From positions 1-5,601 of IMG/VR virus record IMGVR_UViG_2606217110_000012: 5,601 bases of DNA. One strand, 5' to 3'. The notes below the pieces were generated by a model. It saw only the letters and a program-made list of their open reading frames with translations, made no database searches and was not told the origin of the DNA. The stretch comes from a virus (Duplodnaviria > Heunggongvirae > Uroviricota > Caudoviricetes). Within the stretch, counting starts at the first letter, position 1. Every line of letters begins with the position of its first letter. A program made the translations under genes and the position numbers. Positions 3,344-4,104 of this stretch are shown piece after piece.

Positions 3344-3368
3344 AAAAAACCCGCATTTAAGCGGGTTT
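3344..3368 (-). terminator. Intrinsic terminator between the Q-position gene and the kinase (tR'-like position)
   Basis: Minus-strand RNA AAACCCGC-UUAAAU-GCGGGUUU followed by UUU: 8-bp stem with a 5-bp G-C core, then a 6-U run. No U-tract on the plus strand. Confidence 0.6.
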
Positions 3369-3402
3369 ACACACTATACGGCAAAATATCACATTTACAT
3401 AA

Positions 3403-3431
3403 AATGTATGCGATTTAATTGACTTTTGCAA
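3403..3431 (-). promoter_or_regulatory. Candidate late-type promoter overlapping the 3' end of the Q-position gene
   Basis: Minus strand: -35 TTGCAA (3431..3426), 17-nt spacer, -10 TACATT (3408..3403). The predicted start would give a roughly 50-nt RNA ending at the 3344..3368 terminator. Hexamer matches are weak and several other -10-like hexamers exist in this AT-rich gap. Confidence 0.2.
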
Positions 3432-4104
3432 TATCTCGTCGTGAAAAGGTCGCTTTTTGTTGCGATCTCATTTTCACGGTGCAAATCAAGGATTCTGTAT
3501 CGAGTTTCTTAAAAATGTCGCACATCTCACGCCAGTAGTTCGCATAATTATGGCTCCAGTTGTCAGGCTTAACTCCACACAGTCTGGCAAGTTCCTGTCG
3601 CTGGTAGACGTCACGCCCAGTAATCCTCCCCCTGACATCCTGCGCCGCCAGCCAGATTAATTTCTTCAGACGCTCAAGCGTTTTCCCTGTAATTTTTCTG
3701 GTGCCAAAATGCACCTGAAACTTATCCCACGCCCATTTCGCAATGACCACCTGATAATCCCAACTCGGATTTTCACTGTATACCCACAGCACCCACGCCT
3801 TCTGATGCTCTTCAAGAGACAGAACGGCGCGTCGCCATGATGATGTCGAAAACTCAACCGGACTGACCAGGGCAATTGATGAACCTTTCGCCAGCGATTG
3901 CTTTCCCGGGATCGGTGGATTATCCAGCGTTACCATTTTTCCAGTGACCTTATCGCGGTACCGGATTTTTTTACGTCTGTAACGCCCTGTATCAAACATG
4001 GCATTCTCCTGCCAGGCTTCAAGCTGACCTTTTGTTGCCCCACTCAAATCGGCGGTGGCGATAATGAGCTGCTCACGAACAAACTGTAAATACTGGTTAT
4101 TCAT
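3415..4104 (-). CDS. Phage regulatory protein in the Q position; putative late-gene antiterminator, family not assigned
   Basis: 229-aa ORF. ATG 4104..4102 overlaps the rusA stop TGA 4103..4101 (ATGA), with GGAG 6 nt upstream; the track's start is a GTG at 4110. Lies immediately downstream of rusA and upstream of a promoter-like plus terminator arrangement. No Cys-pair zinc-binding motif of lambda-type Q, so functional call rests on synteny. Confidence 0.7.
   Translation of the reverse strand: MNNQYLQFVREQLIIATADLSGATKGQLEAWQENAMFDTGRYRRKKIRYRDKVTGKMVTLDNPPIPGKQSLAKGSSIALVSPVEFSTSSWRRAVLSLEEHQKAWVLWVYSENPSWDYQVVIAKWAWDKFQVHFGTRKITGKTLERLKKLIWLAAQDVRGRITGRDVYQRQELARLCGVKPDNWSHNYANYWREMCDIFKKLDTESLICTVKMRSQQKATFSRRDIAKVN

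Follow-up and report, generated by a model that had tools for sequence, protein, structure and literature searches.

The stretch of DNA analysed here (the window; positions 1 to 5,601 of the IMG/VR virus record IMGVR_UViG_2606217110_000012, from a virus of the Caudoviricetes) spans the junction between a Q antiterminator gene and a kinase-phosphatase cassette that follows it, and all of its features lie on the minus strand. In the direction of transcription it starts with a DUF968 (YdfU-like) gene (5519..4473; PF06147, E 7e-76), which opens a nin-like block upstream of Q, followed by a gene for a RusA Holliday-junction resolvase (4460..4101; PF05866, E 4.7e-15) and by Q itself, which begins at 4110 or 4104 (RefSeq start ATG 4104) and ends at 3415. 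The order DUF968-RusA-Q is common to 80+ related loci. A gap of 144 nt separates Q from a gene for a Ser/Thr protein kinase of 254 aa (ATG 3270..2506; PF00069, E 2.8e-33), whose stop is overlapped by 4 nt by the start of a PP2C-type phosphatase gene (PP2C_2; 2509..1766; PF13672, E 2e-14). Farther on come an open reading frame (ORF) of 65 aa (1546..1349; phrog_331, with a weak winged-helix match), an N6/N4 DNA methyltransferase gene (1198..149; PF01555, E 1e-44; PADLOC MTase_II) and a tRNA gene with anticodon CAT (99..24). The prophage DNA of enterotoxigenic Escherichia coli (ETEC) strains such as E24377A is 99.9-100% identical to the window, and in E24377A the window-equivalent DNA is followed by tRNA-Thr, tRNA-Gly, holins and an endolysin.

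The Q protein gives a full-length match to PF06323 (E 5.2e-84) and also matches phrog_304 (E 3e-102). By its sequence it is an antiterminator of the Q82 family, one of three Q families: Q21 (PF06530), Q-lambda (PF03589), and Q82 (PF06323) (PMC9388147). A PDB sequence search with Q gave no match, as expected since no Q82 structure exists; it has yet to be established whether Q82 uses a nozzle mechanism, as the two solved Q proteins do (PMC9388147). Note that the 3′ third of the gene (3386..3582) shows ~76-77% DNA identity over ~190 nt to Enterobacter and Klebsiella phage Q genes, and that E. coli PPompW-type Q genes align with the window Q over the last 80 nt only; these alignments suggest a mosaic joint within the Q gene.

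The last codons of Q overlap the −35 element and the spacer of a candidate late promoter, PR′ (3431..3403), which consists of a −35 hexamer TTGCAA (3431..3426), a 17-nt spacer, and a −10 hexamer TACATT (3408..3403). The predicted start (+1) at A3396 is set by promoter geometry alone. Read on the minus strand from 3431, the region runs TTGCAA-aagtcaattaaatcgca-TACATT-ttatgt-A(3396)aatgTGaTATTTTGCCgtatagtgtgt-AAACCCGC-ttaaat-GCGGGTTT-tttgc. The two hexamers have 8 of 12 consensus matches and are missed by a consensus promoter scan with a cut-off of 9/12, in which the number of promoter-like sites in the window equals the chance expectation. With a rough position weight matrix (PWM), whose scores are indicative only, PR′ ranks second among 27,850 position/spacer combinations on the minus strand. 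Just downstream lies a predicted sigma-70-dependent pause element (3391..3380), with TG at +6/+7, the −10-like TATTTT at +9..+14, and GCC at +15..+17. The pR′ of phage 82 has a −10-like pause-inducing sequence with an extended −10, GCC at +15-17, an AT-rich segment before the pause, U at +25, and pausing at +25/+26 (Bird et al., PMC5001585). Given a +1 at 3396, the positions of TG, TATTTT, and GCC in the window agree with this description, the comparison being with the features stated in the text of that paper.

Scan statistics by themselves are weak here, and it is comparative conservation that decides that the region is beyond chance. The comparison set comprises 87 loci with Q relatives (64-100% Q identity) from Escherichia, Enterobacter, and Klebsiella phages and IMG/VR contigs, amounting to 28-35 distinct sequences. 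TTGCAA, the 17-nt spacer, TAyrTT, and a GTAAATnTGATAT(T/A)TTGC block stand at the same distance after Q in all 87. The −35, the spacer, the −10, and the TGATATTTTGCC block are kept down to 64% Q identity, whereas the downstream sequence diverges. Across 28 distinct sequences TTGCAAAA and TGATAT are invariant, and the T, the A, and the final TT of the −10 hexamer are each kept in at least 90%. BLAST alignments with Enterobacter phage CobraSix and with E. coli phage relatives run past the Q stop (3415) and end at 3386 or 3379. Two more distant Q82-type phages, phiES15 (Q 47% identical) and Flotzy (Q 33%), have the same promoter and pause grammar, in Flotzy wholly downstream of the Q stop, and the relatives' consensus, TGATATTTTGCCGATTTTGT, fits every described feature of the 82 pR′, U at +25 included. 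A Q-binding element would be placed between the −35 and the −10 (PMC4914094); the spacer in this candidate position, AAGTCAATTAAATCGC, is kept among close relatives, yet it also codes for the C terminus of Q. A full-text literature search for GATATTTTGCC returned a single match, a chance one in Salmonella SgrS. Every feature of a Q82-type PR′, pause, and tR′ that can be looked for in sequence was found in the window, save U at +25, and lysis genes lie downstream of the region in E24377A. We are highly confident that this is a late control region of the Q82 type.

Downstream of the pause element, and forming the 5′ end of the cassette, lies a predicted intrinsic terminator, t1 (3368..3341), with an 8-bp stem, a 6-nt loop, and a U-run. 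Its hairpin (3368..3347) reads AAACCCGC-TTAAAT-GCGGGTTT, followed by TTTGC, and has a folding energy of −14.2 kcal/mol (z −2.1); it is the first listed of the terminator-like sites in the window, where 10 are found against 4.9 ± 2.2 expected. The RNA from PR′ to t1 is predicted to be ~52-55 nt long, and the kinase ATG (3270) lies 71 nt past the U-run. A GC-rich hairpin with a T-run closes all 35 of the 35 distinct leaders. The hairpins themselves vary (CCCGCC/GCGGG, CTGCCG/GGCGG, CCACCG/GGTGG, and others) with their pairing kept, and five leader sequences carry a compensatory change of one G-C pair to A-U. In contrast to this variation, t1 and the sequence that follows it, GCTTAACTCTGTGGACC..., are found behind Q alleles that are 100%, 81% (ML35 type), and 49% (L190, phiES15-like) identical to the window Q. 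On this evidence t1 appears to belong to the cassette and to travel with it rather than with Q. An Rfam search (E up to 1) gave only the tRNA and sub-threshold noise; a Leu-leader match over 3343..3443, which scored 22 bits where the gathering score is 50, was rejected as just the shape of a terminator.

Comparison with the cassette-free relatives L055 and L056 delimits the insertion. By blastn breakpoints the inserted kinase-PP2C cassette occupies 3378..1698 (1,681 nt): homology runs from 5601 to 3379 and begins again from 1697, with ~25 nt between the two in the relatives. The cassette has 35-42% GC, against 48-58% in its flanks. Its left joint falls at +17/+18, immediately past the conserved pause element, and its right joint 5 nt upstream of a second hairpin, t2 (1700..1663; core GGCTGCC-CTCA-GGCGGTC at 1692..1675, T-run at 1674..1670), which has a folding energy of −24.2 kcal/mol (z −2.55). 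Since t2 and its 3′ flank align with the tR′ of cassette-free relatives, with covariation seen, the ancestral tR′ survives, now downstream of the phosphatase gene. By these alignments the cassette is foreign, horizontally acquired cargo in the late leader, where it replaces ~25 nt of ancestral leader. The commonest order in relatives is Q, leader, tR′, 65-aa ORF, and methylase, the 65-aa ORF normally coming straight after tR′; kinase and PP2C stand between Q and the small ORF in at least 17 loci. The cassette is present in 50 of 5,426 complete E. coli genomes (~1%), ETEC and extraintestinal pathogenic (ExPEC) strains among them. Searches by RefSeq protein accession and by strain or phage name found no literature on it.

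An earlier note, made from the letters of this DNA, had described the order DUF968, rusA, and a Q-position gene, then a −35/−10 candidate in the gap, with a start near 3396, and a hairpin with a U-run after it. The gene order is confirmed, with the Q-position gene now a PF06323 antiterminator; the promoter candidate holds up by sequence, its predicted +1 being the position named there and its elements conserved throughout the 87 loci; and the hairpin is matched at the end of every distinct leader. The note had also likened the arrangement to a Q, PR′, tR′ layout, with the cassette where Shiga toxin (Stx) phages carry toxin genes and tRNAs, and related prophages do carry tRNAs, stx2, or lysis genes downstream. 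Its hairpin stands as a terminator and falls as the phage's own tR′, since t1 is by our comparisons cassette-borne and the ancestral tR′ lies downstream of PP2C. Three points thus go beyond that account, as far as alignments can tell: the insertion inside the late leader, the origin of t1 with the cassette, and the displacement of the ancestral tR′ to a place downstream of the phosphatase.

Homologous pairs elsewhere show how often this address recurs. In the window and ML35 types (kinase 100% and 99% identical) the order is Q82-type Q, PR′, t1, the pair, and t2. In L190 (kinase 94%) a Q82-type Q (49% identical) is followed by PR′, t1, the pair, a terminator, holins, lysozyme, and Rz. The Cronobacter phage phiES15 (kinase 40%) has RusA, Q, PR′, a pause element, a hairpin, ~110 nt, the pair, a further hairpin, a small ORF that is possibly a holin, and an endolysin. 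In L193 (kinase 63%) the Q gene is an antiterminator of the Q-lambda family (PF03589), followed by a lambda-like promoter/pause motif, a hairpin, ~190 nt, the pair, a terminator, holin S, and Rz. In all, four contexts with Q genes of two families place the pair between Q with a terminator and a second terminator with lysis genes, and the sequences point to a post-Q address for kinase-PP2C that is recurrent across two unrelated Q families, though not universal. In E. coli phage Flotzy (kinase 45%) the pair lies between Rz and terS and is followed by a terminator, with no 5′ terminator; in a Ferrimonas prophage (kinase 51%) it comes after a cI-like repressor; and in a Vibrio genome (kinase 44%) its context is non-phage. 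These last two were the only informative loci from a scan of genome contigs with the kinase, which returned mostly distant Desulfobacterota kinases. Near the Ferrimonas pair lie a replication O-like gene and an integrase; its address is thus in the immunity region, whereas in enterobacterial phages it is in the late operon.

Two E. coli prophages carry the cassette in reduced surroundings. In STEC388 (L168) an IS1 lies 11 nt upstream of the kinase ATG (window ~3281) and the remnant order is int, xis, truncated exo, IS1, kinase, PP2C, small ORF, methylase, and tRNAs; Q, PR′, t1, and the candidate cassette promoter described below are all gone, and both cassette proteins are identical to those of the window. 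In E24377A (L003 15580..19809) hardly any DNA separates the terminase small-subunit gene from a lom fragment and a tail-fibre gene downstream of it; the cassette prophage there is without head and tail genes and is defective.

The kinase has a GxGxxG-like loop and HRD, DFG, and APE motifs, matches phrog_2361 (E 2e-98), and corresponds to RefSeq WP_000392434.1. Its PADLOC matches are mad6 (best), PD-T4-6 (E 1e-34), and Stk2, and cover the kinase domain only (~residues 7-208). In every homologous locus PP2C accompanies the kinase. Of the 415 positions of phrog_2361 the kinase covers the first 273, and of the 565 positions of phrog_5650 the phosphatase covers only 273-520; longer or fused versions of the two may exist in some phages. 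Frameshifted kinases occur in L021 and L192 (a 10-nt deletion at nt 131-141) and in L191 (a 1-nt deletion at nt 648), and a frameshift is also found in strain 510016 (H49/H91). Two independent frameshifts leave truncated kinases of 52 aa and 218 aa beside an intact PP2C, a pattern of the kind seen when a toxin partner is costly.

The earlier note had also raised a promoter between 3271 and 3343 that could drive expression in the lysogen. Its conditional, by which the cassette would be silent there unless it had such a promoter, is sound as logic. From t1 to the kinase ATG (3346..3271) the PWM found no sigma-70-like promoter better than chance, and the 9/12 consensus scan found no site. What this leaves is one weak, conserved candidate, TGGACC-16-TAAGAT (3332..3305), whose PWM score of 7.36 is equalled by 34% of dinucleotide shuffles. 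The same interval holds a 10-bp inverted repeat (AGUUGUAAGA...UCUUACAAUU; 3315..3287) with the potential to form an RNA hairpin of −8.7 kcal/mol (z −4.2), ~12 nt upstream of the Shine-Dalgarno sequence of the kinase; in the ML35 type a double change of G-C to U.G keeps its pairing. The repeat finds no support as an essential operator or RNA switch, its right arm being absent from the 94%-identical L190.

In lambdoid phages PR′ is constitutive and its transcripts end at tR′ in lysogens; Q loaded at a sigma-dependent pause gives a terminator-resistant polymerase (PMC7547250, PMC4914094, PMC9388147). By analogy, a constitutive sigma-70 PR′ over the end of the window Q would start RNA at about A3396; sigma-70 would re-bind the extended −10-like element at +6..+14, aided by GCC at +15..+17, and polymerase would pause at about +24 to +26. 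Without Q, transcription would stop at t1 and leave the RNA of ~52-55 nt. Upon induction Q would be made and would be expected to bind between the −35 and the −10 and to load onto the paused polymerase, which in its modified form would pass t1, kinase, PP2C, t2, the small ORF, the methylase, the tRNAs, and the lysis genes. In this scheme t1 would shield the cassette from the always-on PR′ and, as for stx2, main expression would depend on Q, with a basal level in the lysogen that is low at most. Had the cassette entered between PR′ and tR′ with no t1, its expression would be constitutive and strong; since every post-Q variant has a terminator before the kinase, PR′-driven expression in the lysogen would be avoided. 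We consider it probable, if not strongly so, that expression of the cassette is mainly gated by Q.

Several observations weigh against so simple a scheme. The window has G at +25, with U at +24 and +26, and differs from its relatives after +17; substitutions at +25 weakened the phage 82 pause (PMC5001585), and the pause in the window may be shifted or weaker than that of 82. A terminator always follows PP2C, and it affects only polymerase unmodified by Q; this would be consistent with a promoter of the cassette at work in lysogens, although in the window the terminator is simply the ancestral tR′. In Ferrimonas pelagia (L088 2945..5543) the pair, 51%/45% identical to that of the window, is directly downstream of and co-oriented with the cI-like repressor (HTH_3 and Peptidase_S24), a place typical of genes expressed in the lysogen, and the cassette is intact in the defective prophages of E24377A and of STEC388, the latter without Q. 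The hexamers of TGGACC-16-TAAGAT are kept or conservatively changed in three cassette variants (TAATAT in ML35, TAGACC in L190); in L190 the stretch just past them diverges and the Shine-Dalgarno region is conserved again, a pattern that would suit a weak promoter. All of these except the base at +25 also speak for dual control such as that of stx1, which has PR′ and a promoter of its own (PMC7547250). Under dual control PR′ and t1 would be real, and the cassette would be a moron with its own weak promoter (~3332..3305), expressed in the lysogen as a phosphorylation-based defence or toxin-antitoxin module, with Q read-through adding a burst on induction. The terminator after PP2C in every context, including Flotzy with no 5′ terminator, is in line with this, as are the matches of the kinase domain to the defence-kinase models PD-T4-6, mad6, and Stk2 and the two independent kinase frameshifts that leave PP2C intact, as would follow from a kinase that burdens lysogens. 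Each of these has a counterweight: the score of the candidate promoter is reached by 34% of shuffles, the PADLOC matches are to the generic kinase domain only, the 3′ terminator of the window is explained by history as the tR′ of the recipient, and both retention in defective prophages and rare frameshifts could be neutral. Dual control is a possible reading of the cassette, and a tentative one.

It could also be supposed that the hairpin at 3368..3347 just ends the early-right (Q) transcript, with the promoter and pause motifs arising by chance and the late promoter elsewhere; PR′ is after all an 8/12 match unreported by the consensus scan, and promoter-like sites occur at the chance rate. 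The motifs recur, however, at fixed spacing in non-coding DNA of Escherichia, Enterobacter, Klebsiella, and Cronobacter phages and match the published features of the 82 pR′ position by position, and in simple relatives such as phage vB_EcoS-689R5 only this region and tRNAs lie between Q and the holin gene, which leaves no other site for PR′. We regard a chance origin as extremely improbable. A role for the short PR′-t1 RNA itself, as a regulatory small RNA like StxS that would be the main product in the lysogen and the reason why t1 is kept, would have precedent in PR′-tR′ by-product RNAs that can become Hfq-dependent regulators (PMC7547250), and the predicted RNA has an unstructured 5′ half, a terminator hairpin, and a U-tail. 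Yet its 5′ half is the pause element, so that its conservation is already accounted for, and leader length and sequence differ between relatives. The kinase 5′ untranslated region was tried as a target by analogy with StxS and rejected, pairing with the leader being no better than for shuffled RNAs, and we think such a role quite improbable. It is unlikely, too, that kinase-PP2C is a true late pair, repeatedly selected as the first genes transcribed after Q antitermination with two unrelated Q families. Such a pair could phosphorylate host or phage proteins just before the portal, terminase, and capsid proteins appear, with the possible effect of disarming host defences that sense late structural proteins or of blocking superinfecting phages in the lytic burst, and the 5′ terminator would then keep a toxic kinase off in the lysogen.

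Farther downstream, the methyltransferase gene is late-operon cargo common to Stx phages (for example, the Stx2 phage L002), and the tRNA is the first of a phage tRNA cluster upstream of the lysis genes. ARAGORN calls the tRNA at 24..99 tRNA-Met (CAT), and RefSeq labels the identical gene in E24377A, ML35, and STEC388 tRNA-Ile; with the anticodon CAT, the RefSeq label implies a lysidine-modified, ileX/ileZ-like phage tRNA. A promoter-like site, TTGCAG-17-TATTAT (109..137, minus strand; fourth on the strand by PWM), stops 10 nt short of the tRNA, and phage vB_EcoS-689R5 has TTGCAA-17-TATTAT ahead of the same tRNA (L001 ~6347..6375), so the phage tRNA cluster may be transcribed without need for Q. 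The 65-aa ORF overlaps at its 3′ end with a terminator-like hairpin on the minus strand, upstream of the methylase (1345..1362; GCCTTCC-TCAG-TGAAGGT, then TTTTTAATTT), and the stop codon of the ORF lies within the stem; this hairpin would confront polymerase modified by Q with a third terminator.

The regulatory layout of the region is ordinary. What the analysis adds is the precise coordinates of its parts, the finding that a cassette was inserted into the leader so that two terminators are now present, and the recurrent placing of kinase-PP2C at the head of late operons. The phage 82 late region likewise has a PF06323 Q after rusA, a promoter over the end of Q, an extended −10-like pause element with GCC at +15..+17, and an intrinsic terminator, with lysis genes further on. 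Compared with cassette-free relatives of this type the window leader is shorter, its U-run starting from ~+50 rather than at +64..+95, and compared with phage 82 it has G for U at +25 and a 1.7-kb cassette with a second terminator between the pause site and the ancestral tR′. By these comparisons the short leader between a Q82-type pause site and tR′ is a recombination joint at which cargo enters lambdoid late operons, at the address of the Shiga toxin genes.

Stx phages have the order Q, PR′, tR′, (methylase, tRNAs), stxAB, and lysis genes. They share with the window cargo between Q/PR′/tR′ and the lysis genes, the small ORF, methylase, and tRNA set (seen in L002, ML35, and STEC388) and, by prediction, Q-dependent expression of the cargo and a short terminated PR′ RNA in lysogens. 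In contrast, the window carries an intracellular kinase-phosphatase pair where those phages have a secreted toxin; this cargo is placed within the leader, ahead of the ancestral tR′ and behind a terminator of its own, and the window Q is of the Q82 family and not of the 933W type. A moron in the sense of Hendrix and Juhala is an extra gene with its own promoter and terminator and deviant composition. Like lambdoid morons, the cassette is present or absent between syntenic prophages, has lower GC, is co-oriented with the late operon, and has a terminator after it. It differs in its cassette-borne terminator at the 5′ end, in having only a candidate for its own promoter, and in a 3′ terminator that is in the window the recipient's tR′ and not its own; the homologous pairs in Flotzy, L190, and L193 each have a terminator after them. 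A classical moron it is therefore not, since the terminator that comes with it stands at the 5′ end and its own promoter is a candidate only.

The timing of synthesis of a prophage-borne, eukaryote-like kinase and its phosphatase is set by this region. If the pair is gated by Q, it would act in lytic growth and could not be a standing defence of the lysogen; if it has its own promoter, it would resemble stx1 and defence modules of the KKP type. The KKP of Pf prophages (PMC11341870) is similar in combining a prophage Hanks-type kinase with a PF13672 PP2C, possibly under a kinase-toxin/phosphatase-antitoxin logic. KKP consists of a PP2C (PF13672) gene followed by two Pkinase genes, with a toxic kinase that the phosphatase neutralises, whereas the window has one kinase gene and then one PP2C gene; since gene number and order differ, the window pair is not a KKP module. 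The Stk of 933W, 26% identical to the window kinase, lies in the immunity region, and PD-T4-6 is a single-gene system, which the window kinase, with its phosphatase partner, matches in the kinase domain only. Unlike KKP and the defence kinases, the window pair is located in a late operon and not in an accessory or immunity region.

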